From: a virus
Lineage: Duplodnaviria > Caudoviricetes
Length of the DNA stretch: 64,000 nucleotides
Direction: 5' to 3' (one strand)
Virus record (IMG/VR): IMGVR_UViG_3300020577_011395
Location: 65,046-129,045 of that record
Shown: positions 2,324 through 13,003 of the stretch, one piece after another
Numbering within the stretch: the first letter of the stretch is position 1
Layout of the letters: every line of letters starts with the position of its first letter
Position numbers and translations under genes: made by a program
The notes under the pieces: model-generated
The model's input: only the letters and a program-made list of their open reading frames with translations
Databases searched by the model: none
Told to the model about the DNA's origin: nothing

Positions 2324-2969
2324 TTGGCATAAAACACAAAATGATGAGTATTTAAAACTTTGCTCACTTCGCCTAGGAAGTGGAGAACCGTTGCATTGGG
2401 TAATGCATTTTGTAAATATTATAAATAATTTTTTGTACAATGATAAAAGTATTAGTGGTTTAACGATCAATGATATAGGCTGCAATGTTGGCCATTTTTT
2501 AAGAGGTGTTGATAAAATAAAAGTTAATACTGTTTATAATGGTTATGATATTTCAAGTGTATATTTAGATATAGCAAAACAACATTTCAAAAAAGATTGT
2601 TTTTATTTACTTGATGCTTCTGAAGAAGTACCAAAAGAATGTGATGTAACCGTTATATCCGCTACAATGGAACACGTATTAAATGATAAAACATTTTTGA
2701 AGAATATACTAAATTCTTCAAAAAAGATGGTAATAATACGTACATTTCTAGGGGATTCAATATTAGAAGAAAAATGTTGCAAAGACGGCGCAGAATATCC
2801 TTATGTGATAAAACAATTTACAAAAGAATATATTGAATCATTAATAGACAAAAATATTTGGAAAATTAAATATTTAGAAGATATAGCAACAAATGGACGT
2901 GCTAAGAAAGTATGCGATAAAGAAGATATCATTAGAACTCAAAAAGTTATAATATTGGAAAAAATATGA
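2316..2969 (+). CDS. Class I SAM-dependent methyltransferase
   Basis: INDIGCNVG motif I, GYDIS acidic motif II, ATMEHV. Confidence 0.8.
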   Translation: MFNWHKTQNDEYLKLCSLRLGSGEPLHWVMHFVNIINNFLYNDKSISGLTINDIGCNVGHFLRGVDKIKVNTVYNGYDISSVYLDIAKQHFKKDCFYLLDASEEVPKECDVTVISATMEHVLNDKTFLKNILNSSKKMVIIRTFLGDSILEEKCCKDGAEYPYVIKQFTKEYIESLIDKNIWKIKYLEDIATNGRAKKVCDKEDIIRTQKVIILEKI

Positions 2970-3883
2970 AATTAATTATTTTTATAAATAGCGCTGGCCC
3001 AAATGTTTCTTACGAAAATTTATTTGATACGATTAGTTCAATTTCTTCTAAATGCGGTATAGAAGATTATGGATTTTATTTTGTTGCTGAAAATGAAACA
3101 ATTGCAAATATGATTAATGAAATATTTTTAGTTTGCAATATACAAAATAAATTATTAGAACTAAAAATATCTAATGACTCATGGGCAAAAAACTTTAACT
3201 TATTCTTTAATTTATACAAAGAAAAAACAGAATATATAATTTATTCACATGATGATTTATATATAAAAACTGATAATTTCTTTATAAAAGCATTAAAAGA
3301 AATAGATGGCATAGATGAAGAATTGGGATGGATAACGTTCACAAGCGACGCCTATTACAGAAACTATGGTTTAGGAATAACCAATTCTGTTAGAGAAGGT
3401 TTTAGTCTTGACAGAGGAGGTTATCCTGGTATTTTTGAGTGCCACTCTATGAAAAACGGAGATAATTTAGACGCTCTAGACATGCCGCCATCGACAGTGA
3501 AATGTCATGCACCATTCCCGCATTTTGTTATGATTTCTTCTAAAACTTTAGAAAAAGTTGGTCCTTGCTCTGATTGGTCTAATTACACTCTTTTGATAGA
3601 TGAAGACTGGGGTTTGGAAGCCCTAAAGAAAAATCTGGTTAATATCTGGATCCCGGACATTGTTTATACCCATCCCTTACGCAAGGATAGCAGAAAAGAA
3701 ATGGGAGTACGATATCAGAATGAAGTTCACGCCAAGTTTAAAGAAAAGTGGGGTTGGAACTTTGATATTGGCGGTTATAGTGATTCCTTTGTAGAAGAAA
3801 TCTGTGAAAAATTTAAAGATACTAACATCCCTTTGACCAAAGGCAAGAATTCTTTTGACTGGCAATATCCGAGAAGAAAATAA
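2966..3883 (+). CDS. GT-A (GT2-like) glycosyltransferase
   Basis: YIIYSHDDL DxD-like motif, LEKVG, EDWGL, KFKEKW tail typical of GT2-like proteins. Confidence 0.65.
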   Translation: MKLIIFINSAGPNVSYENLFDTISSISSKCGIEDYGFYFVAENETIANMINEIFLVCNIQNKLLELKISNDSWAKNFNLFFNLYKEKTEYIIYSHDDLYIKTDNFFIKALKEIDGIDEELGWITFTSDAYYRNYGLGITNSVREGFSLDRGGYPGIFECHSMKNGDNLDALDMPPSTVKCHAPFPHFVMISSKTLEKVGPCSDWSNYTLLIDEDWGLEALKKNLVNIWIPDIVYTHPLRKDSRKEMGVRYQNEVHAKFKEKWGWNFDIGGYSDSFVEEICEKFKDTNIPLTKGKNSFDWQYPRRK

Positions 3884-4899
3884 TGAAAAAAGTTATATAT
3901 TTTGCACCAATTTGTGAATGGAACGATTTTGTAACATTTAATATGTATTTATCTAAAATAAGAAAAGACTATGAAATAATAGGAGTTGTAATACCTAGAA
4001 AGGCTATTTTCATAATAACAGAAGCAGATTTCTTTATTACGTTAGAAGATAAATATATGGTAGGTAGCGATTATCCGGAAACCTTAGAAAGAATTGGTGA
4101 TGTTCACGGAAACTTTGTGACCGATATTGGAGTTTTCCCAAAGCACGTAAGGAATACTGGCGTATTGTTTGAAATGGGTTACCAAGCTATAAAAATGAAT
4201 GATGAATGTTTTCCAGATTATGAAATAAAATTTTATGAGGCGGAAACAAATCTCTATAAGAAAAACTCTATAGAGATCTATAAAGAGCTATTTGCTAATT
4301 TAAAAACTTTTTTATCAAGTGGAAAGACAATTAAACCGACTAAAGAAGTTTTTGAAAGTATTGCTAACAAGTATCAAGGTTCCTTCAAAAAAGATATAAA
4401 GAATTATATTCTCTTGACAAGAAACTTCCAGAACAAAGCAGTAGATGAAAATACTATAAATCTCATTCCTAATTTACAACAAATAATAAAGAAAGTAACA
4501 GAGTCTGGCATAAATATAATAAATATAGGCTTTCCAGCACAAAAATATAATATAACCAATAAATTCTACCAAGAACTTAAATTTGAATCACTTACACAAG
4601 AAGAACTAGTTTGTTTAATGTATTTGGCTGATGGTGTGCTATTAAGTGGACGCTCTGGTGGTTTTGCTGCACATGTTATATCAAATGCTGATTTGTTTAT
4701 GCTTTACCCGGAATGGTCTAAAATAAGAGCAGATATAGACATTTCTATTTTTAATGATCGTACAAAACTAGTCGGGTCTACAGACCTGTGTAAGCATGTT
4801 AGCGACAACAATATACAAAAAATTATTTCTATACTTAAAACACACAAAAAAATAGCCATAAATGATTTTGCAGAGCCAAAAGAAATCTTTTATATTTAA
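3883..4899 (+). CDS. Hypothetical protein, possible GT-B (GT9-like) glycosyltransferase
   Basis: C-terminal LMYLADGVLLSGRSGGFAAH resembles the GT-B SG..H motif; lies inside the sugar island. Confidence 0.4.
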   Translation: MKKVIYFAPICEWNDFVTFNMYLSKIRKDYEIIGVVIPRKAIFIITEADFFITLEDKYMVGSDYPETLERIGDVHGNFVTDIGVFPKHVRNTGVLFEMGYQAIKMNDECFPDYEIKFYEAETNLYKKNSIEIYKELFANLKTFLSSGKTIKPTKEVFESIANKYQGSFKKDIKNYILLTRNFQNKAVDENTINLIPNLQQIIKKVTESGINIINIGFPAQKYNITNKFYQELKFESLTQEELVCLMYLADGVLLSGRSGGFAAHVISNADLFMLYPEWSKIRADIDISIFNDRTKLVGSTDLCKHVSDNNIQKIISILKTHKKIAINDFAEPKEIFYI

Positions 4900-4912: not shown

Positions 4913-5578
4913 ATGAATTGTCTTATTTTAGCCCGTGGTGGAAGTATTGGAGTTCCTAAGAAGAATATCAAGCTATTAAACGGTAAGCCATTAATCGCTT
5001 ATCCAATAGAATCAGCTAAAAAAACTAAATATATATCTAAAGTTTATGTTTCAACAGATTCTGACGAGATTGCAGAAATAGCAAAGAGTTACGGCGCTGA
5101 AATTATAAAACGCCCAAGTGAACTAGCCCAGAGTAATTCTTTAGATGTTGACGCCTTTAAACACGCTGTTAAGTTCTTGGGGGAAGAAGACATTGTTCAG
5201 CTTAGAGCTACAACTCCCATAATAAATCCAATGGTTTTAGATAAAGCTATAGAATATTTTCTAGAAAACCCAGAGGCCACTTCTCTTAGATCTGCACAAG
5301 AATTCTCAGAATCAGTCTATAAATTCTTTAAGAAAGATGGACCATATTGGACCGGTTTCTTTCCTGAACTGCAGGGTGAATACTATAATAGGCCGCGCCA
5401 ATCATTCCCTGCATCTTATTTACCGAATGGTTATATCGATATTGTTAGACCAAAAATTTTCATGTATAAAGATACCTTTCATGGTGATAAAATGCTTTCA
5501 TTCGTAACCGAGCCAGTCATAGAAATCGACACACCAGAAGATTTTGCTAGACTTGAACAAAGGATGAAAAATGTATAA
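4913..5578 (+). CDS. neuA: Acylneuraminate (nonulosonate) cytidylyltransferase
   Basis: ILARGGSIGVPKKNI, GKPLI, VSTDS, RPSELA, QLRATTP, RQ..P..Y.PNG, EIDTPEDF. Start moved to ATG 4913. Confidence 0.9.
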   Translation: MNCLILARGGSIGVPKKNIKLLNGKPLIAYPIESAKKTKYISKVYVSTDSDEIAEIAKSYGAEIIKRPSELAQSNSLDVDAFKHAVKFLGEEDIVQLRATTPIINPMVLDKAIEYFLENPEATSLRSAQEFSESVYKFFKKDGPYWTGFFPELQGEYYNRPRQSFPASYLPNGYIDIVRPKIFMYKDTFHGDKMLSFVTEPVIEIDTPEDFARLEQRMKNV

Positions 5579-6902
5579 ATTTGCAACTACACCACAAAAA
5601 GCCGAAAAAAAGTATACCAAACACGTAACCATACATACTGATATTCCATCTCCAACAACAATAAAGATTTTAGAACAAACTGCTAAAAATGAACCAAGTT
5701 CGATGAACCATCAATTACCAATTGTATGGGATAAAGCAATTGATTATAATGTGTTTGATAATGCTGGCAACAAGTGGATAGATTTCACCTCAACCATATT
5801 TGTTGCTAATGTTGGTCACTCAAATCCAAAAGTGTGCGCAGCTATTAAAAAAATGGTAGATAAGCAACTATTAAATGCTTATTATTACCCAACACAAATA
5901 AAAGCAGATTTTGTTTCAAAACTGCTATCCGTATCTCCATCCAATATTGATAAGGCATTTTTGCTGTCAACCGGATCTGAGGCTGTTGAAGCAGCAGTTA
6001 AAATGGCCATTAAAAACAAAAGTAAGGTTGGGAAGAGAGTCATTGTTTCTTTTGATGGATCATTCCACGGTAAGACTATGGGATCTCAGATGGTCGGAGG
6101 CAAACCACCAGAGAAAGAATGGCTAAGATACCAACATCCAGATATTGTCAATGTTCCATTCCCTTACCCGTGGACTTCTTTTAGTTTCCAAGACACACTC
6201 CAAGACCTAGCTGACCGGGGTATTAGTCTCCGAGATATCGCTGGATTTGTTACTGAGTCTTACCAAGGATGGTGCGCTTGTTTCTTACCAAAACAATACG
6301 TAAAAGATATGAGAGAATGGTGTGATCAAAATAATTCTTTATTGATATTTGATGAAGTTCAATCTGGTTTTGGTAGAACAGGGAAGTTCTTCGCATTTGA
6401 GCACTATGATGTTAAAGCAGATATCATTTGTTGTGGGAAAGGTATTTCTTCAAGCCTACCATTATCCGCTGTCCTATCCAGAGAAGAACTGTTCGAACCA
6501 GAACAAAGTTTTAACAGTACTCATGGAGGCAATCCTGTGGCCTGTGCAGCCTCTCTGGCGTCTTTGGAAGAGATCATTGATAGAAACTTAGTCAAAGAAT
6601 CGGAACGCAAGGGAAAGCTTCTAGAGATGCTTTTAAACGAATGGCAGAAAGAGTCACCAGACACAATTAAAAAAGTATTCTGTACTGGCTTACTCGCAAG
6701 CGTATTTATTGAGCCAACCGTTGGTGACAAAAACGAATTCGTTGATAGGTTAATAGAAGAAGCAATGAGGAGAGGTCTTATTTCTGTTAGGACAGCAAGC
6801 GGAACTTTAAAAATTGGACCTCCACTTACAATACCATATGATGCCTTGATTGAAGGCGTAGAGATTCTTAAAGAGTCTAAAAAGGCTTTAGAAAATGTTT
6901 AG
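5571..6902 (+). CDS. Class III PLP-dependent aminotransferase
   Basis: GNKWIDF, STGSEAVE, SFHGKT, IFDEVQSGFGRTG, GKG (PLP lysine), STHGGNP, IGPPL. Confidence 0.92.
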   Translation: MYKFATTPQKAEKKYTKHVTIHTDIPSPTTIKILEQTAKNEPSSMNHQLPIVWDKAIDYNVFDNAGNKWIDFTSTIFVANVGHSNPKVCAAIKKMVDKQLLNAYYYPTQIKADFVSKLLSVSPSNIDKAFLLSTGSEAVEAAVKMAIKNKSKVGKRVIVSFDGSFHGKTMGSQMVGGKPPEKEWLRYQHPDIVNVPFPYPWTSFSFQDTLQDLADRGISLRDIAGFVTESYQGWCACFLPKQYVKDMREWCDQNNSLLIFDEVQSGFGRTGKFFAFEHYDVKADIICCGKGISSSLPLSAVLSREELFEPEQSFNSTHGGNPVACAASLASLEEIIDRNLVKESERKGKLLEMLLNEWQKESPDTIKKVFCTGLLASVFIEPTVGDKNEFVDRLIEEAMRRGLISVRTASGTLKIGPPLTIPYDALIEGVEILKESKKALENV

Positions 6903-7311
6903 ACATGTTGGTATCGTGGTTGAAGATCTAGAACAACAATTAAGATTTTATACGGGTTTATTGGGTTTAGAAGTATATTATGACAAAGTAGAGCAAGGCC
7001 CTTTTTTAGAAACAATATTGGGAATTTATAACGTTAAGCCTCGAATATATAAACTTGGTAAAAATGGCAAAATTGTGGTAGAACTTTTACATTTTGGTAC
7101 AAATACACTCGTAGGAACACCAAAAAACTTAGTGGAAAGAGGACTAACCCACTTTGCCATAACAGTAAAAAATATAGATGATCTATATGCAAAACTCTTT
7201 AAAGAAGTTCAGTTTGTTAGCGCCCCTGCAATGTCTGATACTGGCAAGCATATAGTGTGTTTTTGTAGAGACTTTGAAGGAAATTACATAGAATTGGTTG
7301 AGGAATTATGA
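6895..7311 (+). CDS. VOC/glyoxalase family protein
   Basis: HVGIVV..L....FY...LGL, VELL, HFAITV, DFEGNYIELVE metal-binding pattern. Confidence 0.88.
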   Translation: MFRHVGIVVEDLEQQLRFYTGLLGLEVYYDKVEQGPFLETILGIYNVKPRIYKLGKNGKIVVELLHFGTNTLVGTPKNLVERGLTHFAITVKNIDDLYAKLFKEVQFVSAPAMSDTGKHIVCFCRDFEGNYIELVEEL

Positions 7312-8081
7312 ATATAGGCATTGTGCAAGGCAGGCTATCCGCTCCAGTAGACGGAAAGATCCAAGAATTTCCAACTAAAACCTGGAAAGAAGAATTTGCT
7401 ATAAAAAAAGAGCTTGGTTTAACCCATATTGAGTGGGTTATTACTAAAGATAGCCTTATCGATAATCCATTATTTACAGAGGATTTATCCAATTATCCGA
7501 TAAGCTCAGTGTGCTGCGACCATATAATAGATGAAAGAATCCACAAGTATTCTTTCTTGGAAGAGAACCTAGAGCCTATCTGTAAAAAGTTAGAAGAGAA
7601 TGAGATAAGTTTCCTCAGTATCCCATTACTAGAGCAAAGCAATATGGATGATGATGCGAAGAGAAAAGCATTTATCAAAAATATAAACAAACTCCACAGG
7701 AAACATAAACATCTCGATTTTATATTCGAAACAGAGCTAAGCGCAGAAAAAACAGCAGAAATTGTTAATTCAAATGAGGCTTTTTTTGTTACTTACGATA
7801 CTGGAAACATTACTTCTTACCTAAAATCACACGATTCTTACATCACTCATTTAAGAGAAAAAATAGTCAACGTGCACATAAAAGATAGGACTTTTGATGG
7901 CAAAACAAAAGAATTTATGACCGGGGACACTGATTTTAAAAAGATCTTTAACCTTTTATCTTTGGTAAAGTATAATGGCTTATATACACTTCAATTGGCC
8001 AGAGGAACTACTGGCGAAGAAAAAGAGTATATTAAGGCTAACTTAGAAAAGGTTAAAAATGCAATCAAACAATCTGTTTAG
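7308..8081 (+). CDS. Sugar-phosphate isomerase/epimerase (xylose-isomerase-like TIM barrel, hexulose-5-P 3-epimerase-like)
   Basis: IGIVQGRLS, HIEW, FETE, YDTGN, VHIKDR, GDTDF. Confidence 0.82.
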   Translation: MNIGIVQGRLSAPVDGKIQEFPTKTWKEEFAIKKELGLTHIEWVITKDSLIDNPLFTEDLSNYPISSVCCDHIIDERIHKYSFLEENLEPICKKLEENEISFLSIPLLEQSNMDDDAKRKAFIKNINKLHRKHKHLDFIFETELSAEKTAEIVNSNEAFFVTYDTGNITSYLKSHDSYITHLREKIVNVHIKDRTFDGKTKEFMTGDTDFKKIFNLLSLVKYNGLYTLQLARGTTGEEKEYIKANLEKVKNAIKQSV

Positions 8082-8883
8082 TTTAGCTGGGAAAACAGCT
8101 TTAATAACTGGTGGAGCGGGGCTTTTAGGCCCAATGCACGCAGAAGCTATTATAGAAGCTGGCGGGCAGGTAATCTTAGCTGATATAGATCTTGAATTAG
8201 CACGAAAAAAAGCAGATGATCTAAATTTAGAGTATAATGATGAAGTTGCCACGGCCTTACACTTGGACGTAACAAAACCTGCATCTGTAAATTTTGCTAT
8301 CGAGTGTTGTAAAAAAATTGATATATTAATAAATAATGCAGCTAAAGACCCTAAAGTTAAAAAAGATGGCGGGCTAAATCTAGAAACAAGATTTGAAAAT
8401 ATGTCATATGAATATTGGCAAGACGGTCTTGATGCAATTATCAATGGAACCTTTCTTTGCACTCAGGCTGTCATAAATAAAATGCTTGCATCCGGCACAA
8501 AAGGCGTAATCCTAAACATAGCGTCAGATCTATCTGTAATAGCGCCAGATCAACGAATTTATAAAAAAGAAGGTCTTTTAAACAGCCAACAACCAGTAAA
8601 ACCAATAACTTATTCAGCTGCTAAATATGCTGTTGTTGGTATGACAAAATATTTGGCAACATATTTTGCTCCAAAAGGTATCAGAGTGAACTGCCTAAGT
8701 CCAACTGGAGTTTACAACGATCATCCAGAAGATTTTGTAGAAAAACTTTCAAATATAATACCGATGGGAAGAATGGCAAAAAAGGATGAATATAAGGGAG
8801 CAGTTGTGTTTATGTGTTCAGACGCTAGCTCCTATATGACTGGTCATAACTTAATAATCGATGGTGGTAAAACACTATGGTAA
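8059..8883 (+). CDS. SDR oxidoreductase (PtmA-like)
   Basis: ITGGAGLLG, LINNAA, YSAAK catalytic motif, IRVNCLSP, IPMGRM, DGG. Confidence 0.9.
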   Translation: MQSNNLFSLAGKTALITGGAGLLGPMHAEAIIEAGGQVILADIDLELARKKADDLNLEYNDEVATALHLDVTKPASVNFAIECCKKIDILINNAAKDPKVKKDGGLNLETRFENMSYEYWQDGLDAIINGTFLCTQAVINKMLASGTKGVILNIASDLSVIAPDQRIYKKEGLLNSQQPVKPITYSAAKYAVVGMTKYLATYFAPKGIRVNCLSPTGVYNDHPEDFVEKLSNIIPMGRMAKKDEYKGAVVFMCSDASSYMTGHNLIIDGGKTLW

Positions 8884-8894
8884 AGGAAAACATA

Positions 8895-9728
8895 ATGCAA
8901 AAAATAACAGTAATAGCTGAAATAGGTATTAATCATAACGGTAGTATGGATTTAGCAAAAGAACTTATACTGAAAGCAAAGGAAGCTGGCTGTCATGCAG
9001 TAAAGTTTCAGAAGCGAGATATTGAAAGCGTTTATACTAAAGAAGAACTAGACGCTCCAAGAGAAAGCCCTTGGGGCAAGACCAACAGACAGCAGAAAGA
9101 AGGTTTAGAATTTTCTGCCGAACAATACAAAGAGCTATATACCTTTACCAAAGAGCAAGGATTGGATTTTGGTGTCTCTTGTTGGGATGTTAAATCTGTT
9201 GATTTGATTGAAAGTGTAGTAAACGTCGATTTTCATAAGGTGGCCTCTGCTTTACTAACAAATAAAGAATTCTTGTTTAGGCTAAATCAAACAGGCAAGC
9301 CAGTTATTTTATCGACTGGTATGTCAGATGACCTACAGGTTGATATGGCCGTCAATTTATTAACTAATTTAAAAGCTGTTTTAGCATGTACAAGTACATA
9401 TCCAACAAAGCCAGAAGAGTTAAATCTTAAATATATCCGCACATTGAAGGCCAAATATCCATTTTTAGAGGTTGGTTTCTCAAATCACTATAATGGACAT
9501 GATGCTTGTGTAATTGCTGTAGCGCTTGGGGCAACATGTGTTGAATTCCATCTTACAAAAGATAGAACAATGTATGGGTCAGACCAGGCTGCTTCAATAG
9601 AAAACGCAAAAGAACTTGTTGATGGTATGCTAGCTGCTCAAAAAATGCTTGGCGATGGCAGAAAAGTAGTATTCAATTCAGAACAGCCAATTGCTAAAAA
9701 ACTAAGAAAGGTCGATACTCTGGTATGA
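8895..9728 (+). CDS. neuB: Nonulosonic acid synthase, short form without the SAF/antifreeze domain
   Basis: IAEIGINHNG, AVKFQKR, KVASA, ILSTGMS, STYP, GFSNH, EFHLT.DR..YGSDQAAS. Ends right after the TIM barrel. AAGGA precedes ATG 8895. Confidence 0.92.
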   Translation: MQKITVIAEIGINHNGSMDLAKELILKAKEAGCHAVKFQKRDIESVYTKEELDAPRESPWGKTNRQQKEGLEFSAEQYKELYTFTKEQGLDFGVSCWDVKSVDLIESVVNVDFHKVASALLTNKEFLFRLNQTGKPVILSTGMSDDLQVDMAVNLLTNLKAVLACTSTYPTKPEELNLKYIRTLKAKYPFLEVGFSNHYNGHDACVIAVALGATCVEFHLTKDRTMYGSDQAASIENAKELVDGMLAAQKMLGDGRKVVFNSEQPIAKKLRKVDTLV

Positions 9729-10021
9729 CTTACTGTTTTGATCTAGACGGTACTCTATGTACAAATACAAATGGTAAATACGAGTTAGCCCAGCCGTTTT
9801 TTGATAGAATAAACGTAGTCAATCGACTATATAACGAAGGGCATAAAATACTTATAGACTCTGCTAGAGGCTCTACAACTGGCTTGGATTGGTTCGATTT
9901 TACAACAAAACAATTACAACTTTGGGGTATTTTGTACCATGCAGTGAGAGTCGGGCTGAAAGCAGAAGCAGATATATTTGTGGACGATAAAGCAATAAAT
10001 CATAACGATTTTTTTAAATAA
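9725..10021 (+). CDS. Minimal HAD-superfamily phosphatase
   Basis: FDLDGTLC motif I, SARG motif II, K..AD.FVDDKA motifs III/IV. Confidence 0.8.
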   Translation: MTYCFDLDGTLCTNTNGKYELAQPFFDRINVVNRLYNEGHKILIDSARGSTTGLDWFDFTTKQLQLWGILYHAVRVGLKAEADIFVDDKAINHNDFFK

Positions 10022-11773: not shown

Positions 11774-13003
11774 TTGGCAATCCTAAACAAATTAGGCAGT
11801 GGAAAAGTCCAAATAGCCTCCGAACAACCTGCAAATAAGTTTTCTGTTGACATGGACGTGCTTAGCACAGATCCTCATGTCGTCGCCAGAAAGCTTAATA
11901 TTGCAACTATAAATAAGCTTAATACTGTAGATAGTTATAAAAGCTATGGTGTGGTTAAGCTTGTTGTTGAAACAAAAACACCCCAAACAAACCTGAATAA
12001 GATTCTAGCAGCCAATACGTCAGCTACTGATAATATATTTGTTGAGTATATAGTTCAGCAGCTAGACTCTGCCCACGCTTCAATTCTTAGTGGGTTGAAC
12101 ACAGTAGAAGATATCTTCAAGAGCACGTCACTTTTGAGATGTAGTTCAAAGCTACCAAATAAGATATCTCCTGGTACTATTGTTGAAATTGATTTTTATA
12201 ATAGTGAAAAAGAGGAAGCATGTATTTCTGCCGTTTACGGTGAACTTGCACCTATTGTTCAAGATGACAAACAAAATTCTGCTGTAATGGCCTTTGAGCC
12301 AGATCCTTGTAATGATCAGTTAGTATCGCCATCTAGTGATTTTATAAATGATTCTTCTCTGCTAACTCAAAAGGAAGCACCAACTCCTAAGTTTTTAAAG
12401 CCTGAATGTTTGGTGAAAGAAGAACCAATAAAAAAATATATTCCTGAAGAAAATGGAAAAATATCAAAATATTATACATTAGAAAATTTAACAAAGTCGA
12501 ATACCGCCAAAAGACTTGGAATTCTAAACGATCCCGATGATGTTCAAAAGGAAAGACTAATATATCTTGCTAATATTGTGCTGGATAAAATTGCTGACAT
12601 CTATACAGCCGACTCTGTCTATATAACAAACTGCTTTAGATCTGATCCACTGAATAAAGCTATTAGAGGAGCACAAAATAGCCAGCATAAACTTGGAACC
12701 GCAGCGGACATAAAGATAATGGGGCTTACAGACGAAAATCTATTTGATGCTTTTGAGAATATTTCTAAATCAAATATACAGTTTGATCAATTAATATTTG
12801 AAAGTAACGGTAAATCTAGTTTTTGGTTTCATATTTCAATAGCCCATCCATCAACAGATGGCTTTACAGAGAATCGAGGTCAAGTTATAAGCTTTGGACC
12901 TTGGTCTTCAAAAAATGGCAAAAAAACATATTTAGAATATGATAGAAAAAATATTCAATTGTACCTATCAAATAATGATATATCGTTGACAGAGACAGCA
13001 TAA
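11774..13003 (+). CDS. Baseplate hub-associated protein with C-terminal peptidase M15 domain (gp5 lysozyme analogue)
   Basis: FRS..LN..I.G...SQH..G.AADI, FDQLIFE and WFHIS are M15 zinc-peptidase motifs; N-terminal PGTIVEIDF resembles the gp5 OB fold; TTG start. Confidence 0.75.
   Translation: MAILNKLGSGKVQIASEQPANKFSVDMDVLSTDPHVVARKLNIATINKLNTVDSYKSYGVVKLVVETKTPQTNLNKILAANTSATDNIFVEYIVQQLDSAHASILSGLNTVEDIFKSTSLLRCSSKLPNKISPGTIVEIDFYNSEKEEACISAVYGELAPIVQDDKQNSAVMAFEPDPCNDQLVSPSSDFINDSSLLTQKEAPTPKFLKPECLVKEEPIKKYIPEENGKISKYYTLENLTKSNTAKRLGILNDPDDVQKERLIYLANIVLDKIADIYTADSVYITNCFRSDPLNKAIRGAQNSQHKLGTAADIKIMGLTDENLFDAFENISKSNIQFDQLIFESNGKSSFWFHISIAHPSTDGFTENRGQVISFGPWSSKNGKKTYLEYDRKNIQLYLSNNDISLTETA

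Follow-up and report, generated by a model that had tools for sequence, protein, structure and literature searches.

Gene content and organization of the locus

The window analyzed here is a 64,000-nucleotide stretch (bases 65046–129045) that makes up half of a 129-kb phage contig in IMG/VR (IMGVR_UViG_3300020577_011395), and near its 5' end lies an operon, built around a NeuB-like synthase, that is predicted to make a sialic-acid-like sugar activated with cytidine monophosphate (CMP). The G+C content of the window is about 33 per cent. The contig is estimated by CheckV to be about 40 per cent complete, and its source is therefore probably a jumbo phage.

Seven genes occupy positions 4913–10021 on the + strand, with ends that overlap or abut (overlaps of 8, 8, 4, 23, 7, and 4 nt at the successive junctions). 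In order, they encode a NeuA-like CMP-ulosonate synthetase (4913–5578), a class III (omega-type) aminotransferase (5571–6902), a VOC (glyoxalase-fold) protein (6895–7311), a xylose-isomerase-like TIM barrel that resembles UlaE (7308–8081), a PtmA-like short-chain dehydrogenase/reductase (SDR; 8059–8883), a NeuB of 283 amino acids (aa) that lacks the SAF domain (8877–9728), and a predicted minimal HAD phosphatase of 98 aa (9725–10021; hereafter, mini-HAD). The same run of genes was found in many independent contigs, and its arrangement is therefore not a matter of chance. An earlier note, made from the sequence alone, had described these seven genes, a short neuB among them, as lying end to end, and all of them are present as described; they are also co-directional and recurrent. 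The limits that it gave to the operon did not hold: the co-directional, overlapping run begins at about position 56 and reaches about 11 kb upstream of the window. Its list of parts was correct for the seven genes and incomplete beyond them, as it overlooked the upstream genes for GmhA, a Maf-like protein, a methyltransferase, and two glycosyltransferase-like proteins, as well as the interchangeability of the tailoring modules. A scan for promoters and terminators performed no better than on shuffled sequence, and the operon limits are thus not set by that scan.

For comparison, we assembled 91 phage loci that encode NeuB relatives (with up to 10 kb of flanking sequence) and 80 bacterial loci, in which gene content was determined by all-against-all clustering and directed BLAST. 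The counts given below refer to these two sets.

The synthase, the phosphatases, and the CMP-transferase

The NeuB of the window matches PF03102 with 206.6 bits (cut-off of 22.1) over model positions 1–241 and ends at residue 283, with no match to the SAF (antifreeze-like) domain, the C-terminal part by which the substrate pocket is closed in such synthases. The short length is a property of the family, as thousands of close relatives have 273–294 aa and the SAF-less clade as a whole spans 275–300 aa. Residues E15, N19, H20, H204, E223, and H225 and the catalytic segment EIGINHNG are invariant among 30 family members; we take these conserved residues to correspond to the metal ligands of Neisseria meningitidis NeuB. 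The closest solved structure is 6NCS, a 290-aa structural-genomics entry. The protein scores below the equivalog cut-offs of both NeuB_NnaB (TIGR03569; 219 versus 399.65 bits) and PseI (TIGR03586; 155.6 versus 340.25 bits).

In a maximum likelihood phylogeny of 108 sequences, all SAF-less NeuBs form one clade (Shimodaira–Hasegawa-like approximate likelihood-ratio test [SH-aLRT] support of 100) on a stem of length 1.05. This clade is separate from the reference sequences, which comprised two PseI (encoded beside pseG and pseH), a NeuB in a legionaminic acid (Leg) context (LegB-LegC-NeuC-...-LegF-PtmA), a NeuB encoded beside NeuC, and one further annotated NeuB. The phylogenetic placement that the earlier note had called for thus sets the window's NeuB apart from the context-defined PseI, LegI, and NeuB/NeuC references. 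Within the SAF-less clade, the phage NeuBs group together (SH-aLRT support of 100), and their sister group (support of 98) consists of bacterial loci with SIS-domain, TIM-barrel, SDR, and NeuA genes, some of which also have the class III aminotransferase and VOC genes. An Escherichia coli "NeuB family" gene was discarded as a reference, being a very divergent long branch and not the K1 NeuB. On the chromosome of E. coli KE47 (NZ_CP141089), at about 2.97 Mb, the gene for a very divergent "N-acetylneuraminate synthase family protein" adjoins an inositol-monophosphatase-family gene, in a region matched by 51 E. coli genomes (11 of them over its full length); this is another pairing of a synthase with a phosphatase, outside the K1 neu cluster.

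The mini-HAD gene is found in 55 of the 91 phage loci and encodes proteins of about 97–105 aa. Across 39 sequences, the four HAD motifs (DxDGT, [ST]ARG, K79, and DD) are kept, with D6, D8, A47-R48-G49, K79, and D88 invariant and T46 nearly so, and the structural model (predicted local distance difference test [pLDDT] of 88) is a capless Rossmannoid HAD core. Given the conserved length, the complete set of motifs, and the core fold, the open reading frame (ORF) is not a truncated gene. Its best fold matches are 1XPJ, 9IQW (the D-arabinose 1,5-diphosphate phosphatase AfhF of phage HY126), and BT0820 (2OBB). The protein also matches phrog_1238 (E-value of 1.2e-21). The PHROGs label of that family is "phosphoheptose isomerase", which, in view of the HAD phosphatase motifs and fold, looks wrong. 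Among the "bacterial" loci, the only one with a phage-type 98-aa HAD (57 per cent identical) comes from a single-cell assembly of Prochlorococcus sp. AG-355-I04 (locus L057), where its gene adjoins that of a short NeuB and has NeuA and SIS genes nearby. Either an island of the host or DNA of a phage that had infected the cell may account for this locus, which offers a lead to the host range of these phages.

In bacteria, the commonest neighbor of the short NeuB is a different HAD protein of 164 aa (HAD164), which is present in 43 of the 80 loci and encoded directly downstream of NeuB in 30; only one of the 91 phage loci has it. HAD164 matches BT1713, the Kdn-9-phosphate phosphatase (Kdn, 2-keto-3-deoxynononic acid) of Bacteroides thetaiotaomicron (E-value of 1.9e-20), more strongly than it does KdsC (about 1e-17). 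The profiles of the mini-HAD and HAD164 are unrelated (hhalign probability of 2.5 per cent), and we dropped the idea that the mini-HAD is a truncated KdsC, for lack of any profile-level relation to HAD164. That two unrelated phosphatase families occupy one and the same place beside the synthase speaks for selection on the step as such, and hence for a phosphorylated ulosonate as the product of this NeuB clade. The phosphatase genes that accompany the clade fit a Kdn-type route, which, as the earlier note pointed out, runs through a 9-phosphate that a HAD phosphatase removes.

The NeuA homolog matches PF02348 (93.7 bits). Its ORF could begin at position 4862, and the in-frame ATG at 4913, 13 nt past the previous stop codon, is the likelier start. 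It scores 117.9 bits against the PseF model (cut-off of 205.7); its closest solved relatives are CMP-sialic acid synthetases (6IFD; E-value of 2.3e-28), with KdsB more distant (5e-8). No other nucleotidyltransferase was found on the contig. Synthase, phosphatase, and CMP-transferase thus stand together in one overlapping operon, and minimal phage loci hold just these three genes. In the published Kdn route, mannose-6-phosphate and phosphoenolpyruvate (PEP) yield Kdn-9-phosphate, which is converted to Kdn and then to CMP-Kdn (PMC6200933). A Kdn-type core of condensation, dephosphorylation, and CMP activation is, on grounds of comparative genomics, a well-supported prediction for the operon.

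Genes of the canonical routes are missing from this setting. Profile searches of the contig detected no NeuC (PF02350), no PseG (TIGR03590), no NeuD/LegH-type acetyltransferase, and no PseB (best score of 24 bits). Queries taken from an annotated Leg cluster and from pseudaminic acid (Pse) clusters on plasmids found NeuC/LegG, LegH, PtmE, PseG, and PseH in none of the 91 phage loci; among the 80 bacterial loci, two have NeuC. Matches to "LegB" and "LegC" are generic (about 26 per cent identity). The earlier note had advised a search upstream for neuC or legC/pseC. There is indeed a DegT-family gene on that side, 0.9 kb from the start of the window, but it is an RfbH/DdhC equivalog (459 bits versus a cut-off of 423) that falls below the cut-offs of PseC (163 versus 423.5) and LegC (145 versus 420). 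That the pathway is non-canonical, as had been proposed, is well supported.

Tailoring genes

Between NeuA and NeuB lie four genes that would modify the sugar. The SDR (PF13561/PF00106) has its best NCBIfam match to PRK09186 (167 bits, under the cut-off of 255) and is 36 per cent identical (E-value of 2.5e-46) to an oxidoreductase in an annotated Leg cluster, presumably PtmA. Of the 91 phage loci, 55 have a match to the SDR family, and in 38 of these the identity is 45 per cent or higher. We discarded the idea that the SIS and SDR proteins correspond to PtmF and PtmA: PtmF is listed as a 326-aa oxidoreductase (PMC4481668), and the Leg cluster has a Gfo/Idh/MocA oxidoreductase beside the PtmA-like SDR.

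For the TIM barrel (PF01261), a PDB sequence search returned nothing useful, and its function was approached through an AlphaFold model (pLDDT of 97.5). The best fold matches are the L-xylulose-5-phosphate 3-epimerase UlaE (template modeling [TM] score of 0.82), ketose 3-epimerases, and the 3-keto-glucoside 4-epimerase YcjR, in agreement with the sugar-phosphate epimerase named in the earlier note. Residues E141, D164, and H190 are invariant, and the candidate position of the fourth metal ligand, picked from the alignment and not by superposition, is Gln in 89 per cent of members. The TIM barrel is accompanied by the SDR in 28 of 29 phage loci.

The aminotransferase (PF00202; 274 bits) has acetylornithine, GABA, putrescine, and ornithine aminotransferases as its nearest relatives and is under the equivalog cut-offs of all of them; enzymes of this group have terminal aldehydes and amines as substrates. 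Its gene, in those loci whose gene order was inspected, adjoins or closely follows that of NeuA. Wherever the class III aminotransferase occurs in the phage set (24 loci), genes for VOC and NeuA are present too. The VOC protein (PF00903/PF13669), encoded in 29 of the 91 phage loci, has weak matches in the PDB. Another 18 phage loci have, in the same place after NeuA, an aminotransferase of class IV (an assignment made by Pfam on the bacterial loci), and the two classes never occur together among the 42 phage loci that have either. NeuA, the class III aminotransferase, VOC, TIM barrel, SDR, and NeuB are all present in metagenome-assembled genomes of a spirochaete and a member of the Mariprofundaceae, and a partial set is present in a Leptospirales and a Saccharibacteria genome. 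Judged by gene content, the tailoring genes are interchangeable modules: the TIM barrel with the SDR, plus either the class III aminotransferase with VOC or the class IV aminotransferase.

A biochemical analogy is offered by Kdo8N, the 8-amino derivative of Kdo (3-deoxy-D-manno-octulosonate). In Shewanella, the oxidase KdnB and the aminotransferase KdnA reportedly act on Kdo; an ulosonic acid of a phosphorylated route is oxidized and then transaminated before CMP activation. Taken with the substrates of the aminotransferase subgroup, this analogy suggests that here, too, a hydroxyl is oxidized and then transaminated.

A 117-aa cupin, which may be a keto-sugar isomerase or epimerase, is encoded in or beside the cassette in 35 of the 91 phage loci (e.g. 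L010:10868-11221). The 80 bacterial loci lack it, as does the window.

Proposed pathway

With moderate confidence, we read the locus from its sequence as an operon for a CMP-activated 3-deoxy-2-ulosonic acid of the Kdn type, which would be made by the phosphorylated route and then tailored. The SAF-less NeuB would join PEP to an aldose phosphate, which may be mannose-6-phosphate itself or a modified form of it, the mini-HAD would strip the terminal phosphate, and the NeuA homolog would make the CMP-sugar. As to tailoring, the PtmA-like SDR may oxidize a hydroxyl and the UlaE-like TIM barrel may rearrange the neighboring center, as a pair like YcjS/YcjR; the class III aminotransferase and the VOC protein would turn the resulting carbonyl into an amine, for which sister phages would use the class IV enzyme; and the methyltransferase could add a methyl group. 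Maf-like and glycosyltransferase-like proteins would then place the sugar in a glycan, either on the virion or on the surface of the infected cell. Tailoring might precede condensation, as the earlier note had proposed, or follow it. The product is probably a modified, amino-bearing, sialic-acid-like sugar.

Several points weigh against this reconstruction. The compared loci are related to each other, and the counts therefore overstate their independence. The references in the NeuB phylogeny were defined by annotation and context, and BT1714 and the Kdn-9-phosphate synthase of Prymnesium parvum were not among them. Because the candidate fourth ligand of the TIM barrel is Gln and not Glu, two-base 3-epimerase chemistry is doubtful for this protein. 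The aminotransferase could make a side-chain substituent instead of aminating the backbone, and the Maf-like assignment comes from a single Pfam match of 39.5 bits. On an Azospirillum plasmid, a short NeuB and a HAD protein are encoded beside a canonical Leg cluster, and some members of the clade may therefore serve Leg-type routes. Finally, since the contig is only about 40 per cent complete, genes for the precursor could lie elsewhere in the phage or be supplied by the host.

Neighboring genes and alternative products

Six + strand genes precede the seven-gene block within the window. The first (56–994) encodes an Fcl-like extended SDR, an NDP-sugar (nucleoside diphosphate sugar) epimerase/reductase (PF01370, 166 bits; GDP-L-fucose synthase model, 248.6 bits versus a cut-off of 500), whose relatives occur in 44 of the 91 phage loci; it may serve a GDP-sugar branch with the Gmd encoded farther upstream rather than the ulosonate branch. 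It is followed by genes for a GmhA-like sedoheptulose-7-phosphate isomerase of the SIS family (991–1581), an MptE/DUF115 (Maf-like) protein (1538–2323), and a class I S-adenosylmethionine-dependent methyltransferase (2316–2969). The last of these matches Methyltransf_11 narrowly (23.2 versus 21.2 bits) and Methyltransf_12 and Methyltransf_23 below cut-off, and methyltransferase genes recur inside the cassette in sister contigs. The PF01973 match of the Maf-like protein (39.5 bits versus a cut-off of 34.6) covers residues 7–99, the N-terminal part only, and no solved structure in the PDB is matched by its sequence. The family occurs in 22 of the 91 phage loci (21 of which have NeuA) and in none of the 80 bacterial ones, which weakly suggests a candidate CMP-ulosonate transferase.

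Two further ORFs are leads drawn from the ESM Atlas. The 305-aa protein (2966–3883) has no Pfam, NCBIfam, or PHROG match; its Atlas feature score is 0.98, and its modeled structure reaches TM scores of about 0.7 to clusters of family 2 glycosyltransferases (GT2). The 338-aa protein (3883–4899), without a Pfam match, has Atlas features of 0.96 and a TM score of 0.63 to a cluster in which 65 per cent of members carry PF01075. These model-based similarities to GT9, the heptosyltransferase family, together with the co-occurrence of the ORF with GmhA (see below), hint at a phage heptosyltransferase.

The GmhA-like gene raises the question of whether the product has ten carbons instead of nine. In such a pathway, GmhA would make D-glycero-D-manno-heptose-7-phosphate, and NeuB would join it to PEP to give a 3-deoxy-dec-2-ulosonic acid 10-phosphate, to be dephosphorylated, tailored, and CMP-activated. 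The enzyme falls below the gmhA cut-off (TIGR00441; 185.7 versus 209.45 bits); it nevertheless looks authentic, as it matches the solved Burkholderia pseudomallei GmhA (2XBL) over nearly its full length (E-value of 5.5e-51), with the active-site segments GGSxxDxxH..E..R, STSGxSxN, and QExH....H kept in the alignment. In the sister phages that carry it, gmhA is mostly directly beside NeuB, and in 19 of the 80 bacterial loci it accompanies a short NeuB. Searches of the contig found no heptose kinase (GHMP or PfkB) and no NDP-transferase, which leaves NeuB as the only visible consumer of heptose-7-phosphate. Magnetospirillum is reported to contain C10 ulosonic acids that are CMP-activated and to which no genes have been assigned (preprint 10.64898/2026.04.20.719630); those are diacetamido sugars, however, and not Kdn-like. 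Moreover, GmhA is present in just 13 of the 91 phage loci, and in the window its gene is not next to that of NeuB but adjoins the Fcl-like and Maf-like genes. All four related loci with the GT9-like ORF also carry GmhA, and GmhA may therefore feed ordinary heptosylation with the help of host HldE/GmhB. The contig, besides, is about 40 per cent complete. On this evidence, we consider a ten-carbon product unlikely. Its fullest form, in which a ten-carbon, amino-substituted, and methylated ulosonic acid is made from heptose-7-phosphate by GmhA, SAF-less NeuB, and mini-HAD, and is transferred onto virion proteins by the Maf-like protein, we hold to be distinctly unlikely; if true, it would mean that many aquatic phages encode a class of sugar for which no biosynthetic genes have been described.

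The 11 kb or so that precede the window form an island of sugar genes, which encode Gmd, several GT4 and GT2 glycosyltransferases, split E1 alpha/beta-like subunits of a thiamine pyrophosphate (TPP)-dependent enzyme, an RmlD-like reductase, the DegT protein, and an SDR resembling dTDP-glucose-4,6-dehydratase. The TPP subunits, the RmlD-like reductase, RfbH/DdhC, and the 4,6-dehydratase-like SDR lie at L002:13816-18100 (genome 60816-65100), ending at window position 55, and by sequence the DegT protein, TPP subunits, and reductase look like the components of a branched dideoxyhexose route. Of the 80 bacterial loci, 22 combine the short NeuB with a TPP enzyme; RfbH-like DegT proteins and an NDP-transferase also co-occur with it in bacteria. 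A branched dideoxyhexose module is thus repeatedly associated with this NeuB clade.

This island, with its 4,6-dehydratase-like and DegT genes, also bears on the possibility of an ordinary Leg/Pse-type pathway, in which a LegI/PseI-like NeuB would act on a 2,4-diamino-2,4,6-trideoxyhexose supplied by the host or by the remaining 60 per cent of the phage, and the other genes would decorate N-acyl groups. The PtmA-like SDR is typical of Leg clusters, and the Azospirillum plasmid provides an example of a short NeuB next to LegB/LegC/NeuC/LegH-like genes. However, the window's NeuB groups with none of the LegI, PseI, and NeuB references and scores under the equivalog cut-offs, the DegT protein is an RfbH equivalog, and the phage loci lack NeuC, LegH, PtmE, PseG, and PseH, all of which argues otherwise. 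The upstream dehydratase is of the dTDP-glucose type (311.6 bits, versus 115.6 for LegB, with a cut-off of 475, and 23.7 for PseB), and the conserved phosphatase would have no role in a Leg or Pse route. Such a pathway therefore appears improbable, the incompleteness of the contig notwithstanding. The plasmid in question, NZ_CP029359 of Azospirillum thermophilum (locus L104), carries genes for a short NeuB, a 361-aa HAD, an O-methyltransferase, and a PhyH dioxygenase, divergent from a full LegB/LegC/NeuC/acetyltransferase/PtmE/LegF/PtmA cluster, and further along it three SDR genes and a TIM-barrel gene. Two ulosonate routes may be combined in that locus.

We give equally little credence to the simplest product, plain CMP-Kdn made by NeuB, phosphatase, and NeuA, with the SDR, TIM barrel, aminotransferase, and VOC protein serving another sugar of the glycan, such as that of the upstream dideoxyhexose or deoxyhexose branches. 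Phage loci reduced to NeuA, NeuB, and mini-HAD would suit such a product, as would the other sugar pathways of the island (Gmd, RfbH, split TPP E1, and 4,6-dehydratase). Yet the gene orders inspected place a class III or IV aminotransferase by NeuA, and the TIM barrel and SDR between aminotransferase and NeuB, in unrelated bacterial phyla as well. Furthermore, the aminotransferases that act on NDP-4-keto sugars belong to the DegT family, not to class III or IV. Highly implausible is a purpose outside glycans, in which the CMP-acid would go into DNA or small-molecule modification: the mini-HAD is close to the solved AfhF, a sugar-bisphosphate phosphatase said to belong to a phage HY126 sugar pathway that is not aimed at glycans, but the operon and the region upstream hold GT2, GT4, GT9-like, and Maf-like genes, sister contigs hold GT10, GT11, and GT25 genes, and nothing in the operon resembles a DNA-modifying transferase.

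Downstream of the operon, the window turns to virion genes, including an M15 peptidase (position 11774), a gp25 baseplate protein (18788), and very large structural ORFs. Upstream, on the other half of the contig, a 235-aa ORF (L002:5695-6402; genome 52695-53402) bears a weak, sub-threshold resemblance in Pfam to the anthrax lethal factor N/C-terminal domain family (24.1 versus 27.4 bits) and to an M90 metallopeptidase; most probably, it encodes no more than a small phage protein of the zinc-metallopeptidase kind.

Distribution and significance

An alignment-based scan confirmed a NeuB relative in at least 570 IMG/VR contigs, of which we kept 80, with NeuBs 46–70 per cent identical to the query and all SAF-less. 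A megablast search with the first 12 kb of the window had no match among 50,697 phage records, and in the INPHARED set the cassette was found in no cultured phage; the only matches of tblastn with NeuB were a Moritella contig and two records of uncultured phages. The core of the cassette is present in a deposited record, MH319754, that is classed in the Kyanoviridae. A scan of species genomes with the single NeuB sequence found nothing, whereas the family alignment found relatives. In searches of the literature for NeuB, nonulosonic acid, and Kdn pathways of phages, no paper describing the cassette came up; a cyanophage study reports KdsA/KdsB, a different system (PMC12801897). The CMP-activated amino-ulosonic acid predicted here has most likely not been described before.

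The cassette is modular and is present in at least about 90 of the phage contigs retrieved and in several bacterial phyla. The known bacterial routes to N-acetylneuraminic acid, Leg, and Pse all begin from NDP-hexosamines. The cassette would represent a second, widespread way to amino-ulosonic acids, one that starts from a sugar phosphate, as for Kdn, and brings in the nitrogen through omega-type or class IV aminotransferases; if so, it would also provide new enzymes for unusual CMP-sugars. How cells, phages, and grazers recognize one another is shaped by sialic-acid-like sugars. If phages put such a sugar on their own virions or on the cell that they infect, this would bear on host range, phage exclusion, and avoidance of grazers in aquatic systems.

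Comparison with known pathways

The closest resemblance in overall logic is to the CMP-Kdn pathway of B. thetaiotaomicron and P. parvum, which likewise consists of a synthase for a sugar phosphate and PEP, a HAD phosphatase, and a CMP-transferase. Minimal phage loci have exactly those three genes, and the bacterial NeuB relatives carry a HAD with a stronger match to BT1713 than to KdsC. In contrast, the phage phosphatase is an unrelated, capless HAD of 98 aa and not of the KdsC/BT1713 (HAD-IIIA, tetrameric C0) type, and the phage cassette adds the SDR, UlaE-like TIM barrel, class III aminotransferase, VOC, methyltransferase, GmhA, and Maf-like genes. With these additions, the product is probably not plain Kdn.

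With the Leg and Pse pathways (LegB/C/H/G/I/F with PtmA, and PseB/C/H/G/I/F) and their Maf proteins, the locus shares a NeuB-family synthase, a NeuA-family CMP-transferase, a PtmA-like SDR, and a DUF115/Maf-like candidate. It differs from them in that the contig and the 91 phage loci are without a LegB/PseB dehydratase, LegC/PseC, an N-acetyltransferase, and NeuC/PseG, that the phage NeuB belongs to another clade and has no SAF domain, and that a phosphatase is present.

Among the tailoring enzymes, the TIM barrel differs from the UlaE and DPEase 3-epimerases, which have a Glu-Asp-His-Glu metal site whose two Glu serve as bases, in the Gln at the candidate fourth position. It recalls the YcjS/YcjR system, where YcjR is paired with the dehydrogenase YcjS: its fold is near that of YcjR, and it is nearly always paired with a dehydrogenase. 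To our knowledge, the closest precedent for combining a dehydrogenase with an aminotransferase that does not act on NDP-sugars is Kdo8N, where such a pair likewise works on a 3-deoxy-ulosonic acid. There, however, an iron alcohol dehydrogenase and another type of aminotransferase modify an eight-carbon backbone made by KdsA, whereas the phage cassette would employ an SDR and a class III or IV aminotransferase together with NeuB.

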